Shown here piece by piece: positions 5,739 to 60,587 of a stretch of DNA of 64,000 bases. This DNA comes from Chamaesiphon sp. Lineage in GTDB: Bacteria > Cyanobacteriota > Cyanobacteriia > Cyanobacteriales > Chamaesiphonaceae. Every line of letters starts with the position of its first letter. The stretch's first letter is position 1. Made by a program: the position numbers and the translations under genes. The stretch covers positions 288,001 through 352,000 of the forward strand of contig CBDFFH010000005.1 in the NCBI GenBank assembly GCA_965246715.1. Reading direction: 5' to 3'. The notes under the pieces are model-generated. The model was not told the DNA's origin. It worked only from the letters and a program-made list of their open reading frames with translations, and ran no database searches.

Positions 5739-6752
5739 ATGAATCAATTGCAAGGCGCGCCGTGGCTTTTGGCACATCGTTCTATGCTAAAACCCAATCA
5801 GCCGATGAAAATTTCACTATTGGGTCATGATTACGTCCTTTGGCAAGACAGCCGTGGCAATATTAACGCCTTGCCGAACGCTTGTCCTCACATGGGCGCA
5901 ATGCTTTCTGAGGGCTGGTGTGTGGCTCAAGCGGATGGCAGTAGTGCGTTCGCGGAGCGTGGCGTTAGCCGTATCGCTTGTCCCTTCCATGCCTTGGAAT
6001 TTGACAATTTGGGTTGCACAGTTCTACCAGGATCGAAGAAACAGACCAAATCGCTCTTTCAACCCCTGGAATTAATTATCCAAGGGGATTTTATTTGGTC
6101 ATATGGCAGCTATGAGCCGAAAATTCCAATTCCTGCAATTATGAATGAGATTGCAACGGAGTACGAGTTCATTGGCGTGACGGGAGAACGCAGCATTCCG
6201 ACCGACCTTCTGAGCTTGCTACTAAACATGCACGACTACAATCACCAAAACGGCACTCATCGAGAATTATTTGAGATTGAAGAAGTGCAAATGAAGCAGT
6301 TCATTGATGAGGGGTTACATTCTCATGCGTATTTATCACAACCCCGCAAACAACCTACATTTCGTGACATTCTAAGAAATCCTGCTCAGCTTGCGATGCC
6401 AAAGGTGCTAGAGGCTCATCTAGAAAATTTTTTCCCGTTCATGGGATTGTTGCACGGTGAAGATAAGCTATTGAGCCTCAAGGAATGTCACTTCTATCTT
6501 CCAGAAGCAGATCGTCAATCTCGTGTATTTGTGTTGATGTATATGAAGGCACATTCTCCGATCGCACATTTGCTTAAAGGCAATCTGCTGAAGTTGATTG
6601 ATGTGGTTGTGGCTCAAGATGCCAAGATTTTAGAAAGGATCTACGCCAACGCACCACAGCGGATCAAGCTAAATAATGAAGTGGGAATGGATTGGGTGCG
6701 ACGCAATTTTGAGAGTTTTCCAGCCGTTGTCGAACCCAATCTATCTCGGTAA
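5739..6752 (+). CDS. Rieske 2Fe-2S domain oxygenase
   Basis: CPHMGA...CPFH Rieske ligands; DYNHQNGTH mononuclear-iron motif. Confidence 0.88.
   Translation: MNQLQGAPWLLAHRSMLKPNQPMKISLLGHDYVLWQDSRGNINALPNACPHMGAMLSEGWCVAQADGSSAFAERGVSRIACPFHALEFDNLGCTVLPGSKKQTKSLFQPLELIIQGDFIWSYGSYEPKIPIPAIMNEIATEYEFIGVTGERSIPTDLLSLLLNMHDYNHQNGTHRELFEIEEVQMKQFIDEGLHSHAYLSQPRKQPTFRDILRNPAQLAMPKVLEAHLENFFPFMGLLHGEDKLLSLKECHFYLPEADRQSRVFVLMYMKAHSPIAHLLKGNLLKLIDVVVAQDAKILERIYANAPQRIKLNNEVGMDWVRRNFESFPAVVEPNLSR
5949..5972 (+). mobile_element. 24-nt small dispersed repeat inserted in frame in a HIP1 site
   Basis: GCG[TTCGCGGAGCGTGGCGTTAGCCGT]ATCGC; removal restores GCGATCGC. Confidence 0.85.
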
Positions 6753-6761
6753 TTGCCAGCC

Positions 6762-6851
6762 ACATAACCACACCCATGCACACCGACAGCCGAGAGTTGG
6801 AGGGTTGTGGATACAAAGGTGATTTACGGCGGTTGATGGGCAACGTTAGCT
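6762..6851 (+). other. attC-like integron recombination site
   Basis: ACATAAC...CCCATGCACACCGAC...GCGGTTGATGGG...GTTAGCT, 10 bp after the Rieske stop. Confidence 0.6.
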
Positions 6852-7019
6852 GGCTCTGACCCTGCTTGGGGCAATCACTTAGATTCTGTCTGTTGGTGTT
6901 CAACTTTTGTTGGACAGGGTATTTAGACAAAAAGTTGAACAATGCCTGTGATATTCTCATGCCCATCCCCTTGCGCGATCTCCCAGGAATATAATAATTG
7001 CCCGTAAAATTCGATAAAT

Positions 7020-7610
7020 ATGAATGTTCTGAATTCTCAATCACTGCTGACCTTAATTCAGGGATCGATCGCCTACCGCGATTTGGTAAATGGACAAATG
7101 CTGTTTTACCAAGGCGATCGGGCTGAGTCAGTTTTTGTCGTAGAGTCAGGAAAAGTTAGGCTTGCCCATTTTACCCAAGCTGGAAAAGTCATTCAACACT
7201 ATGACGCGGTGGCTGGTGAGAGCTTCGCCGAAGCAGCATTGTTCAATTCAATCTATGATTGTGCGGCGATCGCGGCGATCCCGTCAAGAGTGATGGTGTT
7301 GCCTAAAGAGATTTTATTGAAGACTTTAGAAGAACAGCCAACTTTAGCAATGGAAGTAATGGCACAACTGGCGAAACGGGCATATGACACTAAAGTCTTG
7401 CTGCATCTCCGCAGTATTCGCTCCCCGCGCGATCGCGTTCTCCACTACCTTCAACTGGTTGCCGAGTCTAACAGAGTGAGTTTGAAGCGTCCGTTCAAGG
7501 ATATTGCTGAGGAGATTGGCATCGCCCCTGAGGTCTTCTCCAGAGCACTCTCAAGCTTGGAGCAAGAGGGTGTAATTAGTCGTAGTCAGCGCGATATAGA
7601 GCTTCATTAG
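7020..7610 (+). CDS. Crp/Fnr family transcriptional regulator
   Basis: cNMP-binding fold (GESFAEAAL) plus C-terminal HTH (IAEEIGIAPEVFSRAL). Confidence 0.92.
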   Translation: MNVLNSQSLLTLIQGSIAYRDLVNGQMLFYQGDRAESVFVVESGKVRLAHFTQAGKVIQHYDAVAGESFAEAALFNSIYDCAAIAAIPSRVMVLPKEILLKTLEEQPTLAMEVMAQLAKRAYDTKVLLHLRSIRSPRDRVLHYLQLVAESNRVSLKRPFKDIAEEIGIAPEVFSRALSSLEQEGVISRSQRDIELH

Positions 7611-7670
7611 TCTGCGATCTTCAGGATGGGGGTTTCGCTTAACAATCAGTTTCCAAAATTCGATTGAAAC

Positions 7671-7684
7671 TTGACCCCAGTCAA
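7671..7684. promoter_or_regulatory. Fnr-like box TTGAC-N4-GTCAA
   Basis: Palindrome TTGACCCCAGTCAA between the Crp/Fnr gene and the downstream dehydrogenase. Confidence 0.65.
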
Positions 7685-7821
7685 TGCGGCTGACGATTGA
7701 AAGCAATAGACTTATGCAGATGGCCTCAAATAAAATCGATGGAATCTAGAGTAGCCTAGCCCTAGAGGGGTACAACATGGCTGTTCGGCAAAAATTTTGA
7801 TGATTAACTAAGGAGATTGTT

Positions 7822-8559
7822 ATGAACGTTCAAAACTCAGTTGCTTTTGTCACAGGTGCAAATCGCGGAATTGGTAGAGCCTATGTTGAAGCTCTCTTAC
7901 AAGCAGGTGCTCGCCGCATTTATGCAACTGCTCGATCGATCGACACACTCCAAGATTTAGTTGCACTTGCGCCCGATCGGATTATGCCCATCGGGTTGGA
8001 TGTGACCGATATCGAACAAATCAAAGCGGCTGCTGAAACTGCTCGGGATGTCACCTTGCTAATTAATAACGCTGGAGTAATCGGTTCTGGTGGTTTATTT
8101 ACCCCTAACAGCGTGGAGACAGCTCAATGGGAAATGAATACCAACTACTTCGGAACACTCTCAATGGTTCGTACTTTTGCGCCGATTCTGAAGCGTAATG
8201 GAGGCGGGACAATTGTCAACATGATGTCAGTGGTCGCTATTGCAAATGCACCTGTGTTTGGCTCTTACAGTGCTTCTAAAGCTGCTCTTCATTCCCTAAC
8301 CCAAGACATTCGAGCCGAGTTGGCAGCACAAGGCACACAGATAGTGGGCGTTTTTCCTGGCCCCGTAGATACGGCGATGACTGAAGGTTTACCTTTTGAT
8401 AAAGCTGAACCGAGCGATGTGGCGAAAACAGTTCTGCAAGCGATCGAAGCAGGGATTGAGGATGTCTATCCCGATCCAGTCTCTCAAGGTGCGTTTGCGG
8501 CGATCGCCGCGCCATTAAAAGCCGTTGAAAAACAGTTTGCAGGTTGGATGCCTCAATAG
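7822..8559 (+). CDS. Short-chain dehydrogenase/reductase
   Basis: TGANRGIG, NNAG, YSASK; AAGGAG RBS. Confidence 0.94.
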   Translation: MNVQNSVAFVTGANRGIGRAYVEALLQAGARRIYATARSIDTLQDLVALAPDRIMPIGLDVTDIEQIKAAAETARDVTLLINNAGVIGSGGLFTPNSVETAQWEMNTNYFGTLSMVRTFAPILKRNGGGTIVNMMSVVAIANAPVFGSYSASKAALHSLTQDIRAELAAQGTQIVGVFPGPVDTAMTEGLPFDKAEPSDVAKTVLQAIEAGIEDVYPDPVSQGAFAAIAAPLKAVEKQFAGWMPQ

Positions 8560-8597
8560 GCGGGAATGTCTTTTCCTCAGCTAATCGATTGAGGGTT

Positions 8598-9170
8598 TTA
8601 AATCAAGAGATTTAAAGCACGGCGAACATAGTCCGTCCAAGACTCGGATGTCGGTGGAAAAATTAAGGCGTAGAGCATGATGCCGCTCATCGTATCAAAG
8701 ACAAGATCGGAGTCTAAATCTGTTGAAATTTCGTTTCTTGCCTTTGCGCGTTCTAAGACAATCGCAAAGGTTTTGCGTCGCGGTTCCAGGTATTTTGTCC
8801 AGTAAATGCGGGCGAATTGAGGATTACTTGCTGCACTGCTGACGATCGTGGCAACAGTTTGTCGTCCGAGTGGACTGAGGGTGATCTGGGCGGCATTTTG
8901 AACCAGCGCATCAAGATCGCTCTGAAGACTCCCCGTATCGGGAAGAATGATTTCTTCTCGCACACTTTCGATCGCATCTGCCACCAGCTCTTCTTTGGAG
9001 GTATAACGCCGATAGATCGTCGTCTTACCCACACCAGCACGCGCCGCGATCGCTTCGATACTCAGTCGATCGAATCCAACTTCTCCAAGTAATTCTAACG
9101 TAGCTTGCAGCATCGCTTGATGCGATTGCTGACTACGCGGTCTGCCGAGTGATTTGTCGATCTTAGCCAT
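8598..9170 (-). CDS. TetR/AcrR family transcriptional regulator
   Basis: GRPRS...IAARAGVGKTTIYRRY; likely start ATG 9170. Confidence 0.92.
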   Translation of the reverse strand: MAKIDKSLGRPRSQQSHQAMLQATLELLGEVGFDRLSIEAIAARAGVGKTTIYRRYTSKEELVADAIESVREEIILPDTGSLQSDLDALVQNAAQITLSPLGRQTVATIVSSAASNPQFARIYWTKYLEPRRKTFAIVLERAKARNEISTDLDSDLVFDTMSGIMLYALIFPPTSESWTDYVRRALNLLI

Positions 9171-9188
9171 ATCTGCTATGATAATATA

Positions 9189-9206
9189 CGATACAGTACC
9201 GTATCG
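9189..9206. promoter_or_regulatory. Probable TetR operator CGATACAGTACCGTATCG
   Basis: 18-bp palindrome with one mismatch in the 41-bp divergent gap. Confidence 0.7.
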
Positions 9207-9211
9207 AAAAT

Positions 9212-9706
9212 ATGCTAGATCGAAATCGTCCCCATTACATGGATCGCAATAGTATTCAGACGCTTCGAGCAGGTCTGACGGAATACTATGCACTCAACCC
9301 TCATGTTACGCCGCCGGAAACACAACCAGCCGAATTTGGCAAAATCTTGTACGCTCATGATGTCGGTCATGTTATTTATGCTTGCGACACGGGCATGTTC
9401 GATGAATTAAAGATTTTACCGCTATTTTGGTGGACGAGTGAGTGTACGTTTGGGACTTATCTCCAGATGAAAAATTCACCCGCTGTCGATGTGATGTATG
9501 CCGATATGATAAGAGAAAAAGGCGTGCTGTGGCTGTATGGCGCGGTGCTAAAAGTACTGCCGACGCTCATCCCTACGTTAATACCGATTTGGTTCAAAAC
9601 TCGCAATCGTCAGAAGTTGCTCCCGTTTCTAGAATTTGAGCCGTTACTCGATCGATCTCTCCTCGATATTCGTCAAGAGTTCGATCTGTTGCAGTTTATT
9701 AACTGA
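9212..9706 (+). CDS. Hypothetical protein with Coq4-like HDxxH-x11-E metal motif
   Basis: HDVGH-VIYACDTGMFD-E; start 9212 or 9239. Confidence 0.6.
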   Translation: MLDRNRPHYMDRNSIQTLRAGLTEYYALNPHVTPPETQPAEFGKILYAHDVGHVIYACDTGMFDELKILPLFWWTSECTFGTYLQMKNSPAVDVMYADMIREKGVLWLYGAVLKVLPTLIPTLIPIWFKTRNRQKLLPFLEFEPLLDRSLLDIRQEFDLLQFIN

Positions 9707-10035
9707 CAGATTTATTCGTTCAATCGCATTCGAGTCAATACCATAGCTCCCTGGTTTCTTTAAACGCTGCTGGTAATCAGTTCACACTCACACAATCCGC
9801 AGCCATTCTAGTTTTTCTGGCTGAAAAACATGGTCGATTACTATCAACAGAGCAGATCGCCCGCGCCCGCGTATTTGAACAGTTATTCTTTCACGCATTC
9901 GATCGCCTTCAATCTCATTTACCCCGATCGAAAGTGGAGGAGCGCAAATATCTAGATCGAGCGAAGCATTGGCGATCTCCTCGCGCTGTTGATCGATATT
10001 ATTAGATGACAGTTAAATTTTGATATGAATATCTT

Positions 10036-10305
10036 TTAACTCAAATGTCTCCGCCCTTGCCGATCGCGTGTTGACGTTTGTTTCGTCGCAAACTTACGTC
10101 GGTAGCTGTATTGCCCATATACACTCACTAAATAGGGCATTAAGTAGGTCATTACTACAGCAATCCACCGATCGGTAGTCATTTCCCCGCGCGATAGTGC
10201 TAACCCATGATTGATGACAAATAGTAACGAGCCAACTACTAATGCTGTCTTTAATCCTGTAGAAACAAATTCGGGATCGAATAGGCTGACTAAATACTTG
10301 ACCAT
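10036..10305 (-). CDS. nrtS: NrtS-type small nitrate/nitrite transporter
   Basis: TALVVGSLLFVINHG...TYLMPYLVSVYG signature, 2 TM. Confidence 0.8.
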   Translation of the reverse strand: MVKYLVSLFDPEFVSTGLKTALVVGSLLFVINHGLALSRGEMTTDRWIAVVMTYLMPYLVSVYGQYSYRRKFATKQTSTRDRQGRRHLS

Positions 10306-10440: not shown

Positions 10441-10464
10441 TTCGCACCAGCGTACAGTCAGATA
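10441..10464 (+). mobile_element. Degenerate 24-nt small dispersed repeat
   Basis: TCG[TTCGCACCAGCGTACAGTCAGATA]ATCG. Confidence 0.55.
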
Positions 10465-11589: not shown

Positions 11590-11590
11590 A

Positions 11591-13096: not shown

Positions 13097-13137
13097 TTAG
13101 TTAAGATAGACCAATCTCTAATCATAGGCAAGACATT

Positions 13138-16115: not shown

Positions 16116-16139
16116 CCGGCAAAGCCGACGCTACGCGAT
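16116..16139 (-). mobile_element. 24-nt small dispersed repeat in a HIP1-like site
   Basis: Minus strand TCG[ATCGCGTAGCGTCGGCTTTGCCGG]ATCGC. Confidence 0.75.
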
Positions 16140-25501: not shown

Positions 25502-26020
25502 TTAGGCAGCGATAAATTTCATCGCTACTCCGTTCATACAATATCGCAGTCCAGTGGGTTTCGGGCCATCCTCAAATACATGTCCTAAGTGCCCCCCACA
25601 GCGACGACAATGGACTTCAGTTCGAGTCGCACCGAAGGATGTGTCTACGGAAGTTTTAACTGCATTAGCGATCGGTGCATAGAAACTCGGCCAGCCAGTA
25701 CCGCTCTCAAACTTGGTTTCGGAAACAAACAGCGGCAAGTTACAGCCAGCACAGGCAAATTTACCCGTGCGATGTTCTTGAGTCAGTGAGCTAGTGCCAG
25801 CCCGTTCTGTACCCTCTTTTCGGAGTACCTCGAATTGAGCTGGAGTCAGGATCTTACGCCACTGAGCTTCAGTTTTAGTAACCTCGAATTTACCTAATGT
25901 TTTTGCGTTGGCATAGCCTCTCTGAAATAAAATCGATTCAGATCTTCTGGATGAAAAAAATAGCGTGCTAGCAGCACTAAGTGGTACGAGAGAAGCAAAT
26001 AATAAAGTTCGTCTGTTCAT
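25502..26020 (-). CDS. msrB: Peptide-methionine (R)-S-oxide reductase with twin-arginine-like leader
   Basis: MNRRTLL; GTER, CAGC, GWPSF, CRRCGGHLGHVF, RYCMN. Confidence 0.96.
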   Translation of the reverse strand: MNRRTLLFASLVPLSAASTLFFSSRRSESILFQRGYANAKTLGKFEVTKTEAQWRKILTPAQFEVLRKEGTERAGTSSLTQEHRTGKFACAGCNLPLFVSETKFESGTGWPSFYAPIANAVKTSVDTSFGATRTEVHCRRCGGHLGHVFEDGPKPTGLRYCMNGVAMKFIAA

Positions 26021-34348: not shown

Positions 34349-34404
34349 GTAGGGTGTGTTATCGCGTTCGCGTAGCGTCTGCCTTTGCAGAAGCGTAACG
34401 CACC
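34349..34404 (+). repeat. GTAG-type REP-like palindrome containing a nested 24-nt small dispersed repeat (34367-34390)
   Basis: GTAGGGTGTGTTATCGCG[TTCGCGTAGCGTCTGCCTTTGCAG]AAGCGTAACGCACC. Confidence 0.7.
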
Positions 34405-37580: not shown

Positions 37581-37604
37581 TTGGCGCAGCCTCTGGGAAC
37601 GAGA
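37581..37604 (+). mobile_element. 24-nt small dispersed repeat
   Basis: TCG[TTGGCGCAGCCTCTGGGAACGAGA]ATCGC. Confidence 0.78.
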
Positions 37605-37725
37605 ATCGCTAACCGATCTGAATTGCCAGCATACCCAGATTCTAAACTTACAATCTGAGTTTCTCCTGAGAAAGCGATTAATAATTAGGTTTCAAAATTT
37701 ATCCTAATTTCTCAGTCGATATTTA

Positions 37726-38742
37726 CAGCACTTCCGTTAGTCATGAGGTACGCCAAAAGATAGTAAAGATACATTCAATAATGAAAGCATTTTCAGTCGA
37801 TCTTCGAGAAAAAATAGTTGCGGCACATCTCGATCGCCATCACTCAATTAGAGCGGTTGCTAGCATATTTACTGTTAGCAAAAGCTTTGTCCAAAAGCTA
37901 GTCAGACAACATAAGCTTGAAGGAAACTTACAGCCTAAAAAGCCAGGTAAACCACGATTAAGTTACCTGACAAATGCTGAAGTAGAGTTAAGAGAATTAG
38001 TTGCCGAACATCCCGATGCAACTTTGGCTGAACTGTGTGAATTTTTCGCTGATAAAACTGGCAATTGGGTTGGTCGAAGTGCCATGAGTGACGCATTACG
38101 AAAATTAGGCTTAAGTCGTAAAAAAAAACGGAAAGGAGCACCCAAGCTACAACAGAAAGAGTCCTAAATTTGAGAGTAGATTATTGGGAATCGGTTAAAA
38201 ATATCGACGTGAAAAACTTAGTGTTTTTAGATGAAACTGGTATTCTGCTTGGTTTAGCCAGAACTCATGCTCGGTCACAGCGGGGAACAAGAGCATATAC
38301 TTTTACCCCATTCTATCGAGGTGCAAAAGTTACCGCTATCGGCGCAATTAGCATTGAAAAAGTTGTAGCATTGATGACAATGGATAATTCAATGGATAGT
38401 AGAGCTTTTGAATTATTTGTTAAGGATTTTCTAGTGCCGGAGCTATGGCCAGGTGCCGTTGTCGTAATGGATAATTTATCCTCACACAAATTCGATTCCA
38501 TTATCCCAATGATTGAAGCTGTCGGTGCTTCTGTTATTTTCCTCTCCCCATACTCACCTGATTTTAACCCAATTGAGTTATGGTGGTCACAGCTCAAGTC
38601 TTTTTTACGAATGTTTTCACCTGCTACGACAATTATGGTGGATAGAATAATTTCACTTGCAATTGGGTTAATCGATCCTCAACATCTCAGAAATTGGTTT
38701 ACTAATTGCTGCTATTGTACCTCGTAACAACCGGAAGTGCCG
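37726..38742 (+). mobile_element. IS630-family insertion sequence (ORFs 37781-38167 and to 38727, -1 frameshift at A9, 38120-38128)
   Basis: TA duplication (37724-25 / 38743-44); IRs CAGCACTTCCG..GAGGTAC; DETG, MDNL, SPDFNPIE. Confidence 0.94.
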
Positions 38743-38943
38743 TATCGCTCGATCGTTCATGAGCAAAAGAGAACAGACATACCGATCGCCGTTCAGTGAG
38801 ATTAGTTACGATCGAGATTTAGTATTTCTCAGCAAAAATTAATCTTGCTATTAGCGTCGTCTCATAACGCGATCGAGTCTTTCGATTACAGTGAAAGAAT
38901 AACTATAAAACTGCATGAAGTAACGGTTCCCCCAAATTTTCCA

Positions 38944-40425: not shown

Positions 40426-42528
40426 GTGCTGGATCGATTGTTAGTAAAATTGATGACGAGCGCGATTGAAGATGCTGGCGTACAAAGAGGTTGTCTATTA
40501 TTAGATGTCGATCGTCGATTAGAAATAGTCGCCACGATCGAGTCGCAGACCATCTCAATTTTACCTGCGATTACCTTTGATAGTGAAGTTGGTAGAGGTT
40601 TAGTTTCATTAGCAATCGTCAATTATGTAGCGAATACTCAGGAAAACATTATCATCGATTGCACACACCAAGACAGTTTATTTAACCAGGATACTTATAT
40701 TCTCGATCGGCAACCGCAGTCAATTCTATGTGTACCATTAATTACTAAAGGTCAACGCGTTGGCATTCTCTATTTAGAAAACTTTTCGACTGCTACCTTT
40801 ACGACCCAACGGTTAGAAATTCTCCAATTTCTCTTCACCCAAGCAGCGATTTCCCTCGACGGTACTCAAATCCACCACCAGCTAGAGTTGGATGCGGGCG
40901 AAAGCAACAGCAACAGCCAACTAACCCAGGCAAACGACAGGCTTCAGGCCGAAATCTTAGAACGTCAAAAATCCGAGCAAATCCTCAGATCGATCGTTGC
41001 AGGAACAGTCTCAGTTACAGGTGTGGACTTCTTTCGTTCGCTCGTCCGTTCGCTAGCACAAGCTTTAGGCGTTCGCTACGCCTTCATCAGCGAATGTATG
41101 GATGCGCCGCCTACCCGTGGTCGTAGCTTTGCCTTTTGGCAGGGCAATGAATTTGGGGAGGAGTTTGAATATACTTTCCACGGTACGCCCTGCGAGCGGA
41201 TTATTGAGAGTAAAAGCTATCAATGTTTTCCCGCCCAGATCCAAGCTCTATTCCCTGAAGAAAAAGATGAACTTGAGGCGATGGCAGCCCAAAGTTATGC
41301 CGGAATCCCGTTGCTAACTTCGACGGGCGAGCTGTTGGGACACTTAGCAGTACTCGATGACCAGCCGATGGCATCTGATGATGCACCGCACCAGACGCTC
41401 CGCGAACGCGATCGGGCGATTCTGGAAATCTTTGCGGCGCGGGCGGCGGCGGAGATGGAACGCTTACAGGTAGAAGACGAGCTGCGAGTTTCGGAAACCA
41501 AGTTTGCGACTGCTTTTCGGGCTTCACCAGATGCGATCGCCATTAGCAATCTCCATGATGGTACTTACATCGAAATCAACGATCGCTGCTTGCAGATGTT
41601 GGGCTATTCTCGTGCTGAGACGATCGGGCATAGCGATCTGGATTTGGCGATTTGGGCACATCCAGCCGAGCGGATGGCGATCGCCAAACAGTTACAAGAG
41701 CGGGGAACAGTCAGCAATCTAGAGGTGTGGTTGCGCCGCAAGTCGGGTGAAATTTTCCCCGCACTGTTGTCGGCTGAAGCCATCGACTTAGAGGGTGAGT
41801 CCTGCTTGTTGGCAGTGGCTTCGGACATTACACTGCTCAAGCAAGCCGAAAAAGCGGTGCTCAGACTGGCCGAAATTGGCGAACTAGCAGCCACGATCGT
41901 TCATGAGGTACGAAATCCCTTAACTACAATTTTGATGGGCTTAAATGCCTTTAAAAAGCTGGAACTTTCCGAACGGTTTCAAGAATATCTCACCTTGTCT
42001 CTAGACGAAGCCAATCGATTACAACGGCTGCTGAATCAGATTTTACTTTACGCCAAACCGCAAACACTCGATCGATCTGAGCTAGAGCTAAATAGCTTCA
42101 TTACCGAGATGTTAAATACCTTGCAAACCGCCCCTGTTGCGATTGGCAAACCGCTCAATTTTATCGCGATGCGATCGCCTGTAACTGTATCAGTCGATCG
42201 CGATAAATTGAAGCAGGTTTTAATCAATTTAGTCACTAATGCTTGCGAAGCAGTAAGTATCGGCGATCCGATTAGCATTCATATTAGGGAAAGTGGAGCT
42301 AGTCGAATTTGCATTCAAATTCATAATGGTGGTGTGCCGATTCCTACCGATCTTTTGCCACACCTTACTAAGCCATTTTTTACTACTAAAGCCAGTGGCA
42401 CGGGATTGGGTTTGGCGATCGTCAAACGGATTGTCGAAGCTCACGAGGGGGAGTTGGGGATTGAGTCGGGAGAGGGGATTGGCTCGATCGTCAAAGTGCA
42501 TCTGCCGTTGGTGGCATATAATTATTAG
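40426..42528 (+). CDS. GAF-GAF-PAS histidine kinase (possibly 5'-truncated)
   Basis: SILCVPL GAF, second GAF, PAS, HEVRNPL, GTGLGLAI. Confidence 0.85.
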   Translation: MLDRLLVKLMTSAIEDAGVQRGCLLLDVDRRLEIVATIESQTISILPAITFDSEVGRGLVSLAIVNYVANTQENIIIDCTHQDSLFNQDTYILDRQPQSILCVPLITKGQRVGILYLENFSTATFTTQRLEILQFLFTQAAISLDGTQIHHQLELDAGESNSNSQLTQANDRLQAEILERQKSEQILRSIVAGTVSVTGVDFFRSLVRSLAQALGVRYAFISECMDAPPTRGRSFAFWQGNEFGEEFEYTFHGTPCERIIESKSYQCFPAQIQALFPEEKDELEAMAAQSYAGIPLLTSTGELLGHLAVLDDQPMASDDAPHQTLRERDRAILEIFAARAAAEMERLQVEDELRVSETKFATAFRASPDAIAISNLHDGTYIEINDRCLQMLGYSRAETIGHSDLDLAIWAHPAERMAIAKQLQERGTVSNLEVWLRRKSGEIFPALLSAEAIDLEGESCLLAVASDITLLKQAEKAVLRLAEIGELAATIVHEVRNPLTTILMGLNAFKKLELSERFQEYLTLSLDEANRLQRLLNQILLYAKPQTLDRSELELNSFITEMLNTLQTAPVAIGKPLNFIAMRSPVTVSVDRDKLKQVLINLVTNACEAVSIGDPISIHIRESGASRICIQIHNGGVPIPTDLLPHLTKPFFTTKASGTGLGLAIVKRIVEAHEGELGIESGEGIGSIVKVHLPLVAYNY
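41383..41406 (-). mobile_element. 24-nt small dispersed repeat, in frame (APHQTLRE)
   Basis: Minus strand GCG[TTCGCGGAGCGTCTGGTGCGGTGC]ATC. Confidence 0.82.
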
Positions 42529-42557: not shown

Positions 42558-42579
42558 TTGGCGTAGCCTACCGTAGGTA
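42558..42579 (+). mobile_element. 22-nt small dispersed repeat
   Basis: TCG[TTGGCGTAGCCTACCGTAGGTA]ATCGA. Confidence 0.8.
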
Positions 42580-43310: not shown

Positions 43311-43438
43311 GGTTTGGGTTTAGCGTTGGCGGAGCCTACCGGAGGTAATCGTCAAACGGATTGTCGAAGCTCACGATGGGGAGTTGCGGATTGAGTCGGG
43401 TGAGGCGATTGGCTCGATCGTCACAGTTCAACTGCCGC
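43311..43438 (+). repeat. Duplicated 3' end of the kinase gene (copy of ~42403-42508) with a 22-nt element at 43326-43347
   Basis: Shared ATCGTCAAACGGATTGTCGAAGCTCACGA...GGCTCGATCGTCA; GCG[TTGGCGGAGCCTACCGGAGGTA]ATCG. Confidence 0.9.
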
Positions 43439-47293: not shown

Positions 47294-48286
47294 TCATTTC
47301 CCACCATTACCTGCCAACAAATTCTCCAGCATCCCAGAAGCACCCTTCTGTTCCTGCCGTCGATTATCATCATACAAATTCAAAGTATTCTGATTTCGAT
47401 GCCGACTCAACGCCTGCGCTGCCCGCAGATTACCTCCACTAGCATCTAAAAACGCCGTAATCGAACTATGCCGCAAACGATGAGGCGACACCCGCCGCTC
47501 GATCCCCGCAGCCTCAGCATAGCCCTGAACGATCCGATAAATACTATCCCCAGCAATCCTCGCCCCATAACAATTGTGGCTCAAAGAAACAATTAGTGGC
47601 TGTCCTGGCACATTACAGGGATGAAAATTCAGCCACTCCGCCACAGCATAACTCACACTATCGCTAAGATCGATCGCCACCTTCGCTCGTTTCCCCTTCC
47701 CCAAAATCGTCAACTTCTGCTGCTGAGGTAGAAAATCCTCAATATTCGCACTGGCAATTTCGCCCCGCCGGAGCGCATTGCCCCAGAATAATAGCATGAT
47801 TGCATAATCCCTCACCCCAATCGGCGTACTCGGATCGATTGCCGCCAACATCGATTTAAACTGTTCGACCGAAATTCCCCTAGTATCGCGATAAGTTTCA
47901 GCGGGAATGCTCTCGATATCGCCCAGATCGGTCGTGGTTTTACCCAGCTTCCGCGCCATATCGGTTAAGCTCTTAATCGCCGCCAGCCGGACATTAATCG
48001 TGCTGGGTGCCAGATTTTTATCGATCGAGTGACGACGATACCTTAATACCATCTCAATTGCCGCATATCGATCGAGATCTAGAAATTCCGAGATCGTTGC
48101 TGGGGTCGCAGAGCCACTATAAGCAAACTGACAGAAATTCTCGATCGCCTTAACGTACTGTTTCCTAGTACTATCGGTAATCTTCAACTGCCCAAACTCC
48201 GCCCAGAGATTATCTCGATCGACTGTGGTTAATTCGGCTGGGGACGGCTGGAGTTTGATAAGTTGGGGAGTAAGGTTATTTAGCAC
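47294..48286 (-). CDS. Tyrosine recombinase (XerC/D-like)
   Basis: ALRRGE, GKG, HRLRH, LSRH, Y; start uncertain. Confidence 0.92.
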   Translation of the reverse strand: MLNNLTPQLIKLQPSPAELTTVDRDNLWAEFGQLKITDSTRKQYVKAIENFCQFAYSGSATPATISEFLDLDRYAAIEMVLRYRRHSIDKNLAPSTINVRLAAIKSLTDMARKLGKTTTDLGDIESIPAETYRDTRGISVEQFKSMLAAIDPSTPIGVRDYAIMLLFWGNALRRGEIASANIEDFLPQQQKLTILGKGKRAKVAIDLSDSVSYAVAEWLNFHPCNVPGQPLIVSLSHNCYGARIAGDSIYRIVQGYAEAAGIERRVSPHRLRHSSITAFLDASGGNLRAAQALSRHRNQNTLNLYDDNRRQEQKGASGMLENLLAGNGGK

Positions 48287-51222: not shown

Positions 51223-54200
51223 ATGGCGAACCAGATGATTTCGGCGTTTACGCCCAGCCTGATGTCCCCTCAAGAGCTAGAGACGATCCTCGTGCAGCGG
51301 CAGGATTTGGCGCAGGAACTATTCGAGAAAATCGTGTTGAGTGCGACGACTCCAGCCAAACATTATGCCTTGCTGATTGGAATGCGGGGGATGGGGAAGA
51401 CGCATTTGGTGGCACTGATTTATTATCGATTGCTAGCAGAGTTCGATCGCAACCCAACGTTCAAAGATAAGTTGGTTATTGCTTGGCTGCGGGAGGAGGA
51501 ATGGGGGGTAGATTCCTGGTTGGATTTGGTGAGTCGGATTCTGCGCGCTCTAGCCGTTGCAGAACCTCAGTCGAAATCGCTCCTAGAGGAGTTACGACGG
51601 ATTTCGATCGAGGATTCGATCGATCGAGCGGCGGCTAATGCGACTCGATTGTTGAAGGAAGCAATTGGGAATCGCACCCTATTGCTGATGATGGAGAACC
51701 TCGACGATCTGTTTAAAGGCTTGGGAGAAGCGGGTCAGCAGCAGTTTCGGTCTTTCTTGCAAGCGGAGCAGTGCTGCACGATTTTAGCGACTACTCCGGC
51801 GTTATTTACTGCGGTGCAAAGTCGTACCAAACCATTTTTTGGGTTCTTCAATCCGATTTATCTCGACAGGTTGACTGTACCAGAAGCGATCGAAATGTTG
51901 GGAAAGATTGCCACTTTAGGGGGACAGGAAGAGTTAGCAAGTTTCTTACAAACACCCTTGGGACGGGCGCGGGTGCGAGCGGTACATCATTTGGCTGGGG
52001 GAAATCCACGGGTGTATATGCTGTTTTCGCAGTTTATTACGCGGGATGCTTTGGATAGTTTGGTAGAGGCATTTATGAAGATGCTCGACGACTTGACACC
52101 TTACTATCAAGCGCGGATGAAGGAGTTATCCAATCAACAGCGGAAGATTGTCGAGTTATTGGTGGACAAGCGACATCCGGTGATGGTTAAGGAGATTGCA
52201 GCGGACTGTTTTATCGATCCGGGGACGGCAGCGAGTCAGTTGCGGGAGTTGCGGAAGCTGGGCTACGTGGAAGCGGAGCAGAATGGGCGCGAGTCCTTTT
52301 ATGAGCTGCACGAAGTGTTGATGCGCCTGTGTTTGGAGGTAAAAAAGCAGCGGGGGCAGTGGATCGAGATTTTTGTGGAGTTTCTCAAAATTTGGTATCC
52401 GCTCTCGGAACGCAAGAACCAGTTAGAGTTGATGCGGGGTAAGAGTCAATATATCAAAGACGAACATTTAGAGCGTGCGTTGTTGAGTGATGAAGATCCC
52501 TGCTTTATCGGTTCGCAGCGGGATTTGCAGCGAGCGTTGAAGGAACAGCAACAGTTATTAGCTACTGAGACATTAGAAGAATTATTTCATAGCAAAAGGC
52601 TGACTGAAGAAAATTACCAAGAGATTTTGGAATTGGTGCAGACGGATCGATATAGTGAAGCTCAGAAGCTATTATCAGAGATCGTCAGTCAAAAAGATCG
52701 ATCGGTTGAGAAATCTGAGCTAACCTTTTCGCTACAACTTTTGGCAGGATTGGAGCTACTGGCAGCAAAGAAAAATTTAGAAGCTCTAGAACTGTTTGAT
52801 ACGCTGTTAGCTGAGAATGAAAGCGATGTAGATGCTTGGAGTATGCGAGGTATTTCTCTGCGTAGACTAGGAAGATATGAAGAAGCAATCGTTAGTTACG
52901 ATCGGGCGATCTCGATTAAATTCGATGACCATGAAACTTGGAATAACCGAGGTATTTCTCTGCATGATTCAGGAAGATATGAAGAGGCGATCGCTAGTTA
53001 CGATCGTACGATTGAACTCAAACCAGATAACTATGAAGCTTGGTATAACCGTGGAGTTTGTTTGGATAATTTAGAAATGTATAAAGAAGCGATCTCCAGC
53101 TATGAAGGTGCGCTCGAATATAAACCAGCTTTAAAAGAAGCTTGGCACAACCGTGGCATCTCTCTGGGTAAATTAGCAAGATATGAGGAGGCGATCGCCA
53201 GCTTCGATCGAGCAATAGAGATTCAGCCCGATAAAGATGATGCTTGGTACAATCGAGGGATTACTCAAGGAAAGTTAGGCAATCATCAAGATGCACTTGA
53301 CAGTTTCGATCGAGTCATAGAGATTCAACCCAGTAAATATAATGCTTGGTACGATCGAGGTGTATCTCTAGGGCTTTTAGGAAGATATGAGGAAGCAATT
53401 GATAGTTACACTCATTTTATATCTATTAAACCTGATGAGCCTGAAGCTTGGTACGGCAAAGGGACTGCTCAAGGAAATTTAGGAAAATATGAAGAGGCAA
53501 TTCATAGTTTCGATCGGACGATTGAGCTTAAATCTGACGACTGTAGTGCTTGGCACGATCGAGGTCTATGTTTTCACTATTTAGGGGATTATGAACGGGC
53601 AATCTTCAGTTTCGATCGGGCTTTGTCGATTGAAGTCAATGACTATAAATCTTGGAGCGATCGAGGTACTTCTCTGACCGATTCAGGAAGATATGAAGAG
53701 GCGATTGATAGCTTCAATCGCGCTATCTCGATCGAACCTGATGAATATATACCCATTCATAATCAGGGTTGGGTTTATTTCAAATTTGGTAAGTTTACGG
53801 AATCACTCAATTGTTTCGAGCGAGCGATTGCGCTCGCACCGAATAGTCATGTTTCTTGGTATCGCAAAGGACTCGTTCAATTTGTCATGGGCAATTACGA
53901 AAATGCCCTTAATTCTTGGCAACAAACTTTTCAAATCATCCACCAACTCACTCCACGTCTCAATGATATTGCCGGACTCATCCAAGAATTCCTCGGACAA
54001 CTAATTCCCCGACTCTCATTACTCATCAACCCACTCCTACCAAGCGAAGCTAAAGTATCAATCCTGCCGCCGATTAGCATCTCACCTCCACCATCCCTCA
54101 ACCCGTCAACACCTCCATCCACAAACTCCTCGCCGCCTCCACCATTCAACCCATCAACTCCGCCACCTGCTAACCCATCAATACCACCATCGACTAACCC

Positions 54201-54579
54201 ATCCATACCTCCATCGTTGCCTTGGCTACCGGAGGTAATCGACTTCTCACCGCCTCCATTTATCTACTCATCCACCTTCCTTAACCAAATCGTCACCATC
54301 TATCAACAAGCCCGAGTCCTCCCCGAACTCAGCACCGCCCTGATTGCCACCCTCCCCCAAATCCTTGCTCCTAATATTAGCGATCGCACCGCCAATGAAT
54401 GGTTAGCCCTGTGGCAAAACCTCCTTGGCACCGAATCCGCCCTAGAAATGCCCCTGCGCCTGATGAATGTGGCGATCGCTTACAAAAAACAACCCGCCCA
54501 ACAAAAACGCCTCTGGCTGGGGCTAGCCAAGGAAGAGCGAGCGATCCTCAATGGAGCTTTGGGATTAGAAGAGTCCTGA
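51223..54579 (+). CDS. ATPase-wHTH-TPR protein with Pro-rich linker
   Basis: GMRGMGKT, LMMENLD, GGNPR, wHTH, ~11 TPRs (AWYNRG..LGRYEEAI). Confidence 0.88.
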   Translation: MANQMISAFTPSLMSPQELETILVQRQDLAQELFEKIVLSATTPAKHYALLIGMRGMGKTHLVALIYYRLLAEFDRNPTFKDKLVIAWLREEEWGVDSWLDLVSRILRALAVAEPQSKSLLEELRRISIEDSIDRAAANATRLLKEAIGNRTLLLMMENLDDLFKGLGEAGQQQFRSFLQAEQCCTILATTPALFTAVQSRTKPFFGFFNPIYLDRLTVPEAIEMLGKIATLGGQEELASFLQTPLGRARVRAVHHLAGGNPRVYMLFSQFITRDALDSLVEAFMKMLDDLTPYYQARMKELSNQQRKIVELLVDKRHPVMVKEIAADCFIDPGTAASQLRELRKLGYVEAEQNGRESFYELHEVLMRLCLEVKKQRGQWIEIFVEFLKIWYPLSERKNQLELMRGKSQYIKDEHLERALLSDEDPCFIGSQRDLQRALKEQQQLLATETLEELFHSKRLTEENYQEILELVQTDRYSEAQKLLSEIVSQKDRSVEKSELTFSLQLLAGLELLAAKKNLEALELFDTLLAENESDVDAWSMRGISLRRLGRYEEAIVSYDRAISIKFDDHETWNNRGISLHDSGRYEEAIASYDRTIELKPDNYEAWYNRGVCLDNLEMYKEAISSYEGALEYKPALKEAWHNRGISLGKLARYEEAIASFDRAIEIQPDKDDAWYNRGITQGKLGNHQDALDSFDRVIEIQPSKYNAWYDRGVSLGLLGRYEEAIDSYTHFISIKPDEPEAWYGKGTAQGNLGKYEEAIHSFDRTIELKSDDCSAWHDRGLCFHYLGDYERAIFSFDRALSIEVNDYKSWSDRGTSLTDSGRYEEAIDSFNRAISIEPDEYIPIHNQGWVYFKFGKFTESLNCFERAIALAPNSHVSWYRKGLVQFVMGNYENALNSWQQTFQIIHQLTPRLNDIAGLIQEFLGQLIPRLSLLINPLLPSEAKVSILPPISISPPPSLNPSTPPSTNSSPPPPFNPSTPPPANPSIPPSTNPSIPPSLPWLPEVIDFSPPPFIYSSTFLNQIVTIYQQARVLPELSTALIATLPQILAPNISDRTANEWLALWQNLLGTESALEMPLRLMNVAIAYKKQPAQQKRLWLGLAKEERAILNGALGLEES
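54091..54216 (+). repeat. Degenerate 24-bp / 8-aa Pro-rich tandem repeat (PSxNPSxP) x5
   Basis: PSLNPSTP PSTNSSPP PPFNPSTP PPANPSIP PSTNPSIP. Confidence 0.8.
54217..54237 (+). mobile_element. 21-nt small dispersed repeat variant, in frame (LPWLPEV)
   Basis: TCG[TTGCCTTGGCTACCGGAGGTA]ATCGA; shares CTACCGGAGGTA with the 43326 copy. Confidence 0.75.
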
Positions 54580-56188: not shown

Positions 56189-56483
56189 AGTTATAGACCC
56201 AATATTAAATTTCAGTTACTTCGACATAATCGCATTCCTCACAACTAATCTGTCCTACTTCATCTTGACCAAAATTGATAGATCTACAAACAGGACAACA
56301 AATCTCAATCGATTCAGGAAGAAATTGTTCTTTAGTAGTTGAATCTGAGACTACTTTAGATTCTGGAGCTAGTTGTGAGGTGAACCGACGGAAATTGCGT
56401 ACAGGCATTCTATTGGGAGGTTTTGCGATCGGGGCATCAGAAGATTTACATTGTCTATGATACCAACACAGAATCTAGAGCTT

Positions 56484-56782
56484 ATGGCTACTACCGGAAA
56501 ACTCGAACTCACCATCAAGATTAGCGAACTACCCCAAGTCAAGACCGTTGAGAATGGCTTGTAGTATTTCGAGCTGGACTGTAATGGCAGGATCTTCGCT
56601 GTGACCGTTAAGCCCAAAGTTTGGAAGAAGCTCACAGATGCCCAAGAAAACTATCCGATGTGGGTAGCAGCAATTGCTGGACAGATGGGTGCAATGACCC
56701 TAGATGGCTTCGTTTTAGATGGAGCGAATATATTCAGGTGTTTGAAAAGAAACCGAAGGTTGTAGAGGCTGCTGAGGGATAG
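56484..56782 (+). pseudogene. Cyanobacterial plasmid-type small protein ('FinO-like'), internal stop and frameshift
   Basis: GKLELTIKI, TAG at 56562, VKPKVWKKL, WVAAIAG, frameshift before QVFEKKPK. Confidence 0.65.
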
Positions 56783-57206
56783 TAGAGCGGAGGAATTAAC
56801 CCCTAAAATGAGAGTATCCCCGCTAGCGACCAAACTAACGGGGATATCCAGCGGCTATACACCGCAAATACCTATAAATATCTCTTACCAATATGACACA
56901 AGTGACAGAGGCAGACATTAGGGAATTGAAAACAGCGCTCGATGGGAAAACCAGATCGATTGAAGTGATCGGGCGTGGGACTGAAGCTAACACCAAGGCA
57001 ATCGAAGGTTTAAGTCAGACAAGTTCAGCCATCGATCGGGAGCCGTGACTCCATATTTAATAGTTGAGTCTCTTAATTGACACGCGATCGGGCAGATTTC
57101 ACTACACCACTGCAACGGTTTATACTACTGCCAGAACGCCCCGAACGATCGCGGACTTCGTTAGGGTAGAAATAATGTTATTCCGATCGAGAATCGGTTA
57201 TGAAGC

Positions 57207-57926
57207 ATGGATAATCAAGATCGCGACGCATCTTGGGCTGCTGTGATAGATGACGCATTTGCCACCGTGGCCACGGCATCTCGGACGGTCGCGGCAGACT
57301 TGAGTGAATCAGTAGGGACGGCACTTTATCAGTTTGTCGCTCGAGGTACGGAAACCGTTGGCAACACGATCGCGCCGCTCGCTGACAATCCAATGATAAA
57401 ATGGGCGACCAAGGTGCCGGGAATTAATTGGTTCATGGCTGCGCTGGGTCAGGTGAATGTGGAAAGAGTACAGCGCGAAGTTGACGTTTTGCGGCAACAG
57501 TATCCTTTGGATACCCCCGCTCGATTAGCGCAGCGCGTTATTGCCGATACCGCCTGGAAAGCCGCCGGAATTGGTTTGGCCACCAACATTATTCCGCCTG
57601 TGGCACTAATGTTATTTGCAGTCGATTTAGGTGCGCTCTCGGCTCTGCAAGCCGAAATGATTTATCGGATTGCGATTATTTATGGATTTTCACCCACCGA
57701 TGCCGCCCGACGCGGTGAAGTACTAGCGATTTGGAGTTTATCGACCGGAAGTTCGGGCGCGCTCAAGATGGGGTTAAGCTTTGTCGAACTGCTCCCAGGC
57801 ATTGGTGCGGTAGTGGGTAGTGCTGGCGATGCTACCCTGTTATACAGTTTGGGACATCTAGCCTGCCGCTTCTATGAAGCCAAGCAAAAAGCGACATCAT
57901 CAACATCAGATCGTTCGCAATTCTAA
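57207..57926 (+). CDS. EcsC/DUF697-like protein
   Basis: LQAEMIYRIAIIYG, LLPGIGAVVG, ACRFYE. Confidence 0.7.
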   Translation: MDNQDRDASWAAVIDDAFATVATASRTVAADLSESVGTALYQFVARGTETVGNTIAPLADNPMIKWATKVPGINWFMAALGQVNVERVQREVDVLRQQYPLDTPARLAQRVIADTAWKAAGIGLATNIIPPVALMLFAVDLGALSALQAEMIYRIAIIYGFSPTDAARRGEVLAIWSLSTGSSGALKMGLSFVELLPGIGAVVGSAGDATLLYSLGHLACRFYEAKQKATSSTSDRSQF

Positions 57927-58398
57927 CGTGAGGGTGTAGCACCGCCCATTTTGGCTACAGGCGTAATTGGGCGCTCGAACACCCAGGTCGATAAGGTATC
58001 AGATAGAAGCTTGGTATTACTCCGGAAATACCCGGTATTACTCCAAACAGCCTCCGTCGTGCTGGACAAGCTGCGTTAGTCGAGCATCCAGCGCTACGGG
58101 CACAGTGCGTGAAAGGCGATTAACCCTCTCCTTTTTCACCTGTTGGTTAGACAGATTCCTCAAGTTGCACCACCCATGCAGTTGACAAGAATACGCACCA
58201 ATCGCGTTTGCGAGTGCTACGAATGCCGTATCTAGGGATATGGAATGCTTGTAAGCGGTCGATGCGCGTAATTTCTTCCAAGCTAATCTGAAAACTTCTT
58301 ACTGCATACTCCGGTAGTTTATCGGTATATGCAATGACTTATGGCTCAGCCAACGCTGGATTTAATAAGCCTAATCGAACTCCATTGCTGTGCTTTTG

Positions 58399-59556
58399 CT
58401 ACCGAGCACCCTGTTGGGGACCGATGGCGCGCCGCAACGACTCAGCACTCGGTGGTGTTGGTTGATTACAAAGATCGCCGTTACCGTTGCCACAGTTCGA
58501 CTCGAAGTCATCAGCCATTTGCTGCAACTCGGGTCGGGTTGGGATCGGCGGCGGCGGGTCAGTGGGCAGCATAGAAGGTTCAACACCTGTGGAGTTCAGC
58601 TGAGCAATGACCGAGCGAGCCACAGTTCGACCCAATGCTATGCCGTTAATGTGATCCGTTCGCCAGTGAATACCCGCCCACAAGCGTGCCATGCCAATGT
58701 TATCGGCTAGCTTGTCAAGTTCATCTTTTGCTTCTGGGAAAAAACATGAGAGAAGTTCACTCGCAGCACCGGAATAAGTGCTGTGCCCTGATGGGTAAGC
58801 CGGATGTCGTGGTGTGCCCGGTGATGGCATTGGTTTTGTCCTTGGATTGCCATCCTGCACCTCACCGCTACTCAAATCGACTTCCGTGTCGTAGAGCACG
58901 TTCAGTGGGGGCAAGCCCTGGCTGACAGCATACTCAAATGGACGCTGGCGGCGGGCAACAAGATCCGTGCGGTCGGTAGCCAGCCATTTGTAATGCCACG
59001 CTGCTAAAAGTGCGCTGGAGATTGCGACGTCAAGAGCAGCCCACACCCAAGCTTGGCGAGGCGGTGACCAGTCCTTCACACGAATCAACCCGTTGAGTGC
59101 ATGTCGATGAGCTAATCCTGGCGTTTCCCCTTCAAAATAGCGGGCAAGTTCCCGTCCAGTTTCTACGAGAGGCTGGTTGAGACGAAGTGTTCTGACTACG
59201 GCACCTAACGGCGGCGGCGCGAACTTAATCGTTTTAGAAGAGATCATCAAGTCTCCGCCAGTGAGGAATACGCTCATCTGCTTGCGCTCGCGCCCGGGGG
59301 GTCCACCGACTAACGCATTCGCATTGCCCCGTAATGATTCTAACTCGCGTAGTTCTGCGATTTCGGCATTTATAATCGCTTGACCCTCTGGCGTACCAGA
59401 ATCAGGGTAGGAGGGAAAGAAGTTAGGACTGTTAGGATCATCAGTTCCCGCCTCCCTGAGGTCGTCTAGTGAAACAATGCGCGGTTGAGAACACCGATTC
59501 CAAAAACTTGCTTTAGGTTCAACTTGTGGTCCATATAAGTTATACTCGGTTACCAT
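58399..59556 (-). CDS. Vanadium-dependent haloperoxidase / PAP2 superfamily protein
   Basis: AAWHYKW..RP, HPAYPSGHS, ARLWAGIHWRTD; AAGGAG RBS before ATG 59556. Confidence 0.82.
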   Translation of the reverse strand: MVTEYNLYGPQVEPKASFWNRCSQPRIVSLDDLREAGTDDPNSPNFFPSYPDSGTPEGQAIINAEIAELRELESLRGNANALVGGPPGRERKQMSVFLTGGDLMISSKTIKFAPPPLGAVVRTLRLNQPLVETGRELARYFEGETPGLAHRHALNGLIRVKDWSPPRQAWVWAALDVAISSALLAAWHYKWLATDRTDLVARRQRPFEYAVSQGLPPLNVLYDTEVDLSSGEVQDGNPRTKPMPSPGTPRHPAYPSGHSTYSGAASELLSCFFPEAKDELDKLADNIGMARLWAGIHWRTDHINGIALGRTVARSVIAQLNSTGVEPSMLPTDPPPPIPTRPELQQMADDFESNCGNGNGDLCNQPTPPSAESLRRAIGPQQGAR

Positions 59557-59973
59557 TGCTTTCTCCTTGTATTGGGTAATTTCAGAATTGCTTCTTCCAT
59601 TAGAAGCATTCACACTCACGCGGTATTTGCCACGCAACTGCAAGGCTTACGGTACTGGACTGCTAATGGATGAGGCAACCAGTAAAACCGTTTGTGGGCA
59701 GCCATTTTAGAGATTCAAGCTTCGATTACCTAAAAACTTCGTCTGACAAGGGTTTCAGGTAGCTAGCCTCTTTGTAGAGACCAGTGCCAGCGCCGATGGT
59801 AGTCATGACCTCTACTCTAATTAGATCTGACTGTTGCTTATTTCACTTCTGAATTGAGTTTATTTCTTATTGGTGTAAATTAGTAGTGCCCCAGCGAGAA
59901 ACTTAATTATAGTTAATTCAAATAAAAATGCGGTTTTGCGGTCTCAACTAGATTGATCGAGCATGGGTAATTA

Positions 59974-60243
59974 GGGGGAAACGCAGAATTCGGAGAATAT
60001 TGCACGTTAACGATTTCTTCTGTCAGGAAAGGCTCTATGACCTGTTATGGAATATGTCAATAAATGATAAAAAGGACTCTAGATTGACACTTTAAGAAGC
60101 TTTTAGTTGACATTAGGTTGGAGTGTACCCCAATCTGACAAAATATGGCTTTTTCCCTGTTCTCAGGTTACTTCCTTGAAAGCCTTTTCCTGAGAGGCTT
60201 TCAGCCTTAGCGTGCTATTTTGTCCGAATTCTGCGTTTCCCCC
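59974..60243. mobile_element. 270-bp Tn3-family miniature element, 38-bp terminal IRs
   Basis: GGGGGAAACGCAGAATTCGGAGAATATTGCACGTTAAC versus reverse complement of 60206-60243 GGGGGAAACGCAGAATTCGGACAAAATAGCACGCTAAG. Confidence 0.85.
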
Positions 60244-60563
60244 AATGTCATCTCTATGAACAGAATGAATTTTATCAGACCTTTCGTGAGTTTGACGCTA
60301 ATAATAATTAGGCTTTAGCTAAACTAAAATAACCAATCAGGTGGGCATTTTCCCGCATTATTAAGTATCTAGGCGCAATTAAATATAAAACGATCGAGCG
60401 CATGTTCACCTGCAACACTTAGAGATCCCATTCCCGCTAGACAGCCTTGGCTAAGAGGCTGTTTGAAAAGTTAGACAGACAGATAAGATCGATGCTCACC
60501 TGTTTACTATAGGTGAAACTCGGTCGGAACTACTAATTCGATTACTACGTGCAGAGATTAGCG

Positions 60564-60587
60564 ATCGCGTAAGCGCGCCGCAAGGCG
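60564..60587 (+). mobile_element. 24-nt small dispersed repeat
   Basis: GCG[ATCGCGTAAGCGCGCCGCAAGGCG]GTCGC. Confidence 0.6.

Follow-up and report, generated by a model that had tools for sequence, protein, structure and literature searches.

The window analysed here, a stretch of 64,000 nucleotides (nt), is part of contig C5 in the 6.1 Mb genome (G000) of a Chamaesiphon sp. (GCA_965246715.1). It carries short two-hairpin micro-elements, most of them inserted at CG^ATC, the caret marking the insertion point. A preliminary description, made from the letters of the window, had listed ten such copies and likened them to the small dispersed repeats (SDRs) of Nostoc. All ten were present, each being 21, 22 or 24 nt long. 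The elements are real, recently mobile, seamlessly inserted and non-coding. They likely form a sister family of SDR5 of Nostoc, which is known here by its published description and by a 21-mer that is probably SDR5, and we consider this identity of the elements highly probable. Their reading as mobile SDR-like micro-elements was borne out by empty orthologous sites, by conserved structure and by a 21-nt element with the same first hairpin lying within HIP1, the palindrome GCGATCGC, in Nostoc.

Structure and mobility of the elements

Copies were located by pattern scans, controlled by shuffles and reversed patterns, in place of a covariance model. The flank-blind scan required TT or AT, SGC-GNA-GCS and a hairpin of 4 bp or more without mismatch, with a total length of 22 or 24 nt. 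It returned 205 strict copies in G000, versus 0, 0 and 2 in three shuffles. The layout was TT (the first two bases in 198 of the 205), then a GC-GNA-GC mini-hairpin, the head, and a second hairpin, the tail, with compensatory pairs; the dominant lengths were 22 and 24 nt. Broader sets comprised 244 copies for the flank contexts and 289 for the alignment of orthologs.

The earlier statement that the two-mini-hairpin layout is kept while the sequence varies proved correct, with compensatory pairs in both tail and head. Among 113 distinct 24-mers from a tail-blind scan, Watson-Crick pairs of several types occupied the five stem positions in 101, 101, 103, 99 and 92 cases. Mispairs were G-T in 5 cases and A-C in 12: G-T pairs are not tolerated in the tail stem. 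The 24-mer tail was a 5-bp stem with a triloop (GAA, TTT or TCT), and the 22-mer tail was a second GNA mini-hairpin, CC-GNA-GG. Head positions 3 and 11 covaried (G-C in 93 copies, C-G in 35), and a head-blind scan found GCGNAGC at 147 of 212 sites. The GCGNAGC DNA mini-hairpin is described as extra-stable, nuclease-resistant and poorly bound by single-stranded DNA-binding protein, its RNA counterpart being much less stable (PMC13037366). GNRA or UNCG accounted for 1 of 26 four-base tail loops. The loops match DNA mini-hairpins and not RNA tetraloops.

Mobility was seen in comparisons with the congener G032 (6.8 Mb), of which 1.6 Mb were compared, the chromosomal parts being picked for high copy density. 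A site was called empty when the lengths agreed within one base; nearly all agreed exactly. Among the 289 broadly defined G000 elements, 54 were alignable (35 empty, 10 filled and 9 other). The reciprocal comparison of 142 G032 elements gave 46 alignments (27 empty, 13 filled and 6 other), and that of G000 elements with G000 paralogs gave 90 (46, 25 and 19, respectively). Since nearly all empty sites showed a length difference of zero, insertion entails neither duplication nor loss. A 2-bp target duplication was considered and rejected, the left end of the element being TT and not AT. Among public runs, no RNA dataset was listed as holding the elements, and four contig sets yielded no usable filled/empty polymorphism.

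According to crude open reading frame (ORF) calls, 68 of 132 24-mers lay inside ORFs, versus 7 of 78 22-, 23- or 25-mers. The ORF-located 24-mers in frame represented about half of all 24-mers, and selection acts on the reading frame of the inserts. By the same calls, the elements were 35 sense versus 33 antisense within ORFs, and 44 versus 37 between co-directional genes; such nearly equal counts indicate that orientation is independent of the genes.

Elements were also nested in themselves and in other repeats. A MITE-like repeat (miniature inverted-repeat transposable element), TTAGCCCG^CACTT, present in about 23–25 copies in G000 (e.g., C39:89799), always held a 24- or 25-mer, and one copy had a second element nested in the first. 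No empty copy of this repeat was found in G000, so the element was amplified as its cargo. The k-mer counts of G000 also showed, besides several further families of dispersed repeats, a CRISPR-like family of 20-mers (50 copies).

Target sites and the copies of the window

The sequence CGATCG occurs 28,367 times in G000, where the octamer TCGATCGA (757 per Mb) is more frequent than HIP1 (458 per Mb). Among the 205 strict copies, CG lay directly upstream in 97%, and A, T, C and G successively downstream in 81, 81, 96 and 80%. The 244 broader copies reduced to 195 independent flank contexts, of which 150 were CG^ATC, and the cut polarity on the strand of the element, CG^ATCG, was fixed. At position −3 of 189 sites, T was favoured and A avoided (T 118, C 35, G 30 and A 6, against 75, 30, 56 and 28 expected; p = 4e-12), while the mirror position +5 was near background (p = 0.054); the target is thus read asymmetrically. 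Extended palindromic flanks were rejected as a feature of the target, since the outer bases were complementary at 62 of the 189 sites (33%) versus 31% of all CGATCG. The preliminary description had placed the insertions at HIP1-like CG^ATC sites. The junction held, while HIP1 proper did not: the consensus is YCG^ATCG, and perfect HIP1 was found at 12 of the 189 sites, compared to 9.9% of all CGATCG. Perfect HIP1 enclosed the 24-mer in 12 of 13 Nostocales-titled records and in 0 of 32 Chamaesiphon-titled records, which indicates that the target follows the palindrome stock of the host.

One tail subfamily behaved differently. All 11 G000 copies with the tail TCTGC-N4-GCAG occupied non-ATC sites of the form YG^AR, situated in another element at its GNA loop, in a CCCCTCC-NN-GGAGGGG repeat at its loop or in a GTAG-type repeat. 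Across the 39 genomes of the family, 329 matches to this tail were counted; among the matches listed, inspected by eye, 0 of 150 were at CG^ATCG, one had ATCG after TG, and many represented amplified host repeats and were non-independent. The tail TCTC-N6-GAG, again by eye, was at CG^ATCG in about 52 of the 150 matches listed. Target class therefore depends on the tail, one subfamily avoiding CGATCG and entering other hairpin repeats. A tail with a four-base loop measured 25 nt at ATCG and 24 nt where the target supplied the A that closes the tail hairpin. Probably, T12 and T2 of the element form pairs with the bases at the start of the 3' flank. At a locus of another family (L018:1502, genome G024), a copy 23/24 identical to the element at 5949 of the window was inserted at CCG^ACAT, a non-CGATCG target.

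In the window, removal of the insert left CG^ATC in eight of the ten listed copies, and those at 34367 and 60564 deviated, just as had been claimed. Perfect HIP1 was restored by the copy at 5949 only. The chance of finding ATC at any of 21–24 nt 3' of a CG within the window is 9.7%, and the flank-blind scan of the genome provides the stronger evidence. Precise empty homologous sites were found for the copies at 5949, 25908, 41383 and 43326, whereas no alignable ortholog was found for those at 10441, 16116, 42558, 54217 and 60564. All copies are on the plus strand except those at 16116 and 41383.

The 24-nt element at 5949..5972 (GCG^ATCGC) adds eight residues in frame (FAERGVSR) immediately ahead of the second Rieske motif in the ORF 5739–6752; an exact 24-nt gap was seen in the six homologs shown and in genome G015. 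An eleventh copy, additional to the ten, was found at 25908..25931. It is an 8-residue in-frame insertion on the antisense strand of the ORF 25502–26020 (MsrB-like by eye), and its site was empty at two loci, L031 and L106. The 24-nt element on the minus strand at 41383..41406 (GCG^ATCAT) contributes APHQTLRE in frame to the ORF 40426–42528, which encodes a GAF/PAS histidine kinase. Its site was empty at loci L043 and L322, but the G032 ortholog (L032) holds a diverged copy, so this element is older. Canonical 22-nt elements were present at 42558..42579 (TCG^ATCGA, intergenic) and at 43326..43347 (GCG^ATCGT, in a gene fragment with uninterrupted homologs). For the latter, five of the six homologous stretches shown had an exact empty site with the same left junction, TTTAGCG^ATCG.

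The 24-nt insert at 34367..34390 (GCG^AAGCG) belongs to the TCTGC-N4-GCAG subfamily. It lies at the G^AAG of a hairpin tip, and not at CGATCG, in the GNA loop of a GTAG-type palindromic repeat (34349..34404) that has uninterrupted siblings elsewhere in G000. Its reported deviation is thus real and reflects a different target class rather than decay. The second deviating copy, at 60564..60587 (GCG^GTCGC), is a 24-nt variant with 4-nt loops and has two relatives elsewhere in G000, the first at CG^ATCG, the second at CG^GTCG. Two other 24-nt elements are intergenic, at 16116..16139 (minus strand, AT start, TCG^ATCGC) and at 37581..37604 (TCG^ATCGC); the latter was absent from the G032 ortholog, but the gap was imprecise (31 nt). 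The 21-nt variant at 54217..54237 (TCG^ATCGA) combines the common 22-mer tail with an atypical head, GCC-TT-GGC, found a single time in G000. It is in frame in the tetratricopeptide repeat ORF 51223–54579, inside a stretch of about 247 nt that relatives lack. The copy at 10441..10464 (TCG^ATCGT), with a 4-nt head loop and a weak tail, is less certain and appears to be a decayed 24-mer, inside a segment of about 136 nt missing from the G032 ortholog.

Elsewhere in the window, the regions 37724–38744 and 47294–48286 hold IS630-like transposase fragments and a tyrosine integrase ORF present in multiple copies. The window shows synteny with the second contig of G032 (447 kb) and has a plasmid-like appearance.

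Distribution and possible routes of movement

The pattern was found in 36/36 other genomes of the family, with 4–231 copies each, and in 8 of 24 genomes of other families; the reversed pattern gave no match. Phylum-wide, 38 of 301 genomes were positive, with 1–8 copies outside the family; a search of 165 genomes from outside the class gave no match. By record title, the matches were most often from Chamaesiphon (32 of 80 titled rows). Seven matches in viral contigs were set aside as probably due to chance, six having a broken tail stem. Outside the family, the low-copy sites were in accessory-type genes and some were clustered. In a Nostocaceae-type genome (G179), the locus L247 contains a block with 75–95% protein identity to contig C37 of G000 and with 81 CGATCG and 10 HIP1 in 20 kb. 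This Chamaesiphon-like CGATCG excess likely marks a recent cross-family transfer.

Within G000, the density of elements at up to 100 kb from plasmid or integrative and conjugative element (ICE) backbone genes or coupling-protein genes was 17.0 versus 5.5 per 1000 CGATCG, i.e., about three-fold higher. Seven element-rich contigs had been picked post hoc, and the marker-gene density served as an independent test. On these post hoc contigs, the repetitive extragenic palindrome (REP)-type repeats were equal or depleted. In genome G011, 23 of 77 copies were on two small contigs of 367 kb. These were rejected as plasmids: the distal part of contig C2 holds core genes, and its first 72 kb contain 12 of the 14 copies. 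As its copies are mostly outside the core-gene part, the pattern is that of an accessory island and not of a replicon. At C2:235000–246000 of G000, about twelve small ORFs, toxin-antitoxin-like by eye, are separated by a repeated spacer with one to three micro-elements per copy, a layout resembling integron cassettes.

We propose, tentatively and with somewhat less than even confidence in the mechanism as a whole, that the elements move along an HUH-like route. A strand-transfer enzyme acting in trans, most likely of the HUH/Y1 kind, would excise and paste them in the form of folded single-stranded DNA. If circularised, the two tandem mini-hairpins would form a nuclease-resistant dumbbell. The choice of target would be helped by pairing of T2 and T12 with the first 3' flank bases, and DNA passing through a single-stranded state in horizontal transfer would be preferred for insertion. 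A single-stranded DNA intermediate is suggested by the GCGNAGC head, the triloop tails, the lack of G-T tolerance, the asymmetric target and the gene-independent orientation. HUH enzymes are described as strand-specific, with circular single-stranded DNA and guide-paired site choice (PMC6006769, PMC8266576), and such a route is favoured because insertion here is likewise seamless, strand-specific and, probably, guide-paired.

Several observations weigh against this proposal. Computed folding energies were the same for the two strands, although the program may lack the GNA bonus. Constraint on the 3' flank is evident from the predominance of CG^ATC among the independent sites; targeting of the IS608 type is known to need a 5' motif only. 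A replichore strand bias, as in IS608 or ISDra2, was looked for and rejected, the strands being mixed along G032 and G011 and agreeing between 88 of 156 neighbours in G000. Known RAYTs (REP-associated tyrosine transposases) cut at CT or CA and not at CG (PMC8266576). No mobiliser was found: 20 loci from other families had no such gene in common near their low-copy sites, and no autonomous copy with a transposase ORF was seen by eye among 145 G000 head matches lacking ATC at 22–25 nt. Y1 genes, whose presence in 36 of 38 genomes of the family speaks for the proposal, had no match in G043, a 98% complete genome with 38 copies. The element head was present at 2 of 30 Y1 loci (33 per Mb versus 55 per Mb in G000), and copies lay within 5 kb of two of the six Y1 genes of G000. 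The plasmid-like contig of G032 reached 35 copies per Mb, only about two-fold over the rest of the chromosome. The enrichment in accessory DNA could also reflect relaxed selection, with clustered copies being non-independent; relaxed selection and insertion preference are inseparable on the present data. As a side observation, two Y1 proteins of G000 (C9:115794–116207 and C14:4547–4954) have the Y---Q-HH motif of subclass 1.2 and are flanked by long multi-hairpin repeats; this subclass is described as being without typical end structures (PMC6006769).

Capture by host repair is a rather unlikely alternative that would need no dedicated transposase. A host nicking or mismatch system sensitive to the methylation of CGATCG/GATC would open CG^ATCG on incoming or hemimethylated DNA, and fragments consisting of nuclease-resistant double mini-hairpins would be ligated or copied in. 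The target is the core of two host methyltransferase sites, a HIP1-directed nick has been proposed for SDR5 (PMC4390886), the target tracks the palindrome of each host, transferred DNA is enriched in copies and no transposase is linked. Exact donor ends, the fixed polarity and the subfamily at YG^AR, which is not a methylase target, would be left unexplained. An RNA intermediate, in which a transcribed two-hairpin unit is processed and then reverse-transcribed or reverse-spliced into DNA, we regard as quite improbable. RNA folding likewise gives two hairpins and 22 reverse-transcriptase domain matches were found in G000, but the loops are triloops and GCGNAGC rather than RNA tetraloops, G-U is not tolerated, orientation shows no bias to genes and a search of Rfam with the element gave no match.

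Strand exchange at a 2-nt core, G^NNC, between the target and a looped-out donor by another recombinase (IS110-like, serine or tyrosine) would agree with the seamless junctions and with the near-constant C at +3 while +1 and +2 vary. The elements, however, start with TT whatever the target core, which argues that no core is exchanged or duplicated, and a 24-bp duplex circle is too small; we consider this route still less probable than one through RNA. Hardly credible is the view that the elements are not mobile and arise by repeated local palindrome expansion, through slippage or template switching. The 7 of 205 copies starting with ATCGC, which re-create the target on the left, fit this view, which is already contradicted by the tail covariation and by the recurrence of identical complex tails, across genomes and families, at sites that are not homologous.

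We would add, as a speculation that we think improbable, that the elements belong to a phylum-wide class of 21–25 nt single-stranded DNA replicators composed of two extra-stable DNA mini-hairpins. Their own 3' hairpin would set the target class (CG^ATCG or hairpin tips), and a strand-transfer enzyme of an undescribed kind, working on DNA in transit, would paste them without a scar. If true, no self-guided mobile DNA would be smaller, and the elements would act as a natural mutagen inserting eight residues in frame.

Relation to known systems

The present analysis contributes the relaxed target, YCG^ATCG, tracking the palindromes of the host, the DNA mini-hairpin loop signature, the tail subfamily avoiding CGATCG and the enrichment near plasmid/ICE backbone genes. 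The movement of SDR5-type repeats has been an open question since 2008, and the role of HIP1 itself is unsettled. In the present family, the mechanism is testable with 24-mer oligonucleotides thanks to hundreds of dated pairs of filled and empty sites, two naturally occurring tails that differ in their targets and a structural signature that tells DNA from RNA. The elements are also a steady source of in-frame 8-residue insertions in accessory proteins, and their enzyme, if found, would allow scarless short insertion at a 6-bp site.

SDR5 has a two-hairpin structure with compensatory changes and is not known outside perfect HIP1; SDR1 and SDR4 are said to nest in themselves and in other repeats. 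The source study of the SDRs (Elhai et al. 2008, Genome Res 18:1484) is said to have proposed an RNA intermediate for them. A pattern generalised from the head matched 188 times in G293, a replicon of which matches Nostoc plasmids, and 82 times in G147. Nearly all the matches listed were a 21-mer in GCG^ATCGC with a GGC-GNA-GCC head. SDR5 is described as a HIP1-associated 21-nt repeat of heterocystous cyanobacteria, its function being called unknown (PMC13756078), inserted between nt 3 and 4 of HIP1 (PMC4390886), and the 21-mer of G293 and G147 probably represents it. That a same-head 21-mer in Nostoc HIP1 fits the published definition is the reason for regarding the 24- and 22-mers as a sister family.

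The elements share with SDR5 the point of insertion in a HIP1-type site, between its bases 3 and 4 (xCG^ATCG at empty orthologs), and the two hairpins with compensatory changes. The head T(A/T)-GGC-GNA-GCC is shared with the putative SDR5 21-mer, which has a GNA-capped tail, and near-intermediate forms occur. Like SDR1 and SDR4, the elements nest in themselves and in other repeats. They differ from SDR5 in being 22 and 24 nt long (only the copy at 54217, with its atypical head, has 21 nt), in their TT start and 4–5-bp tail without spacer, and in the rarity of perfect HIP1 at their YCG^ATCG targets. They also abound throughout a non-heterocystous family whereas SDR5 is not known outside Nostocaceae; one report states that no SDR-like repeats were found outside Nostocaceae (PMC5861425). 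The TCTGC subfamily or the 24-mer, which is low-copy in Nostoc, may correspond to one of SDR1–8.

With the REP/REPIN-RAYT systems the elements share short hairpin DNA, a readable GNAG plus 2 nt plus hairpin and a single-stranded DNA logic. Their GNAG, which may or may not correspond to the invariant 5' GTAG of REP/RAYT, has a free N (60 T, 48 A, 21 G and 15 C of 144) and is base-paired into the head. The elements do not flank Y1 genes, are often intragenic and have a CG rather than a CT junction, and REP-type repeats are not enriched where the elements are. Like IS200/IS605, they show no target duplication and a fixed polarity 3' of a short motif, but they have no ORF, a length of 24 nt, a constrained 3' flank and no replichore bias. 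Unlike MITEs, their ends, TT...A, are not inverted repeats, and their junctions are of zero length with no target duplication.

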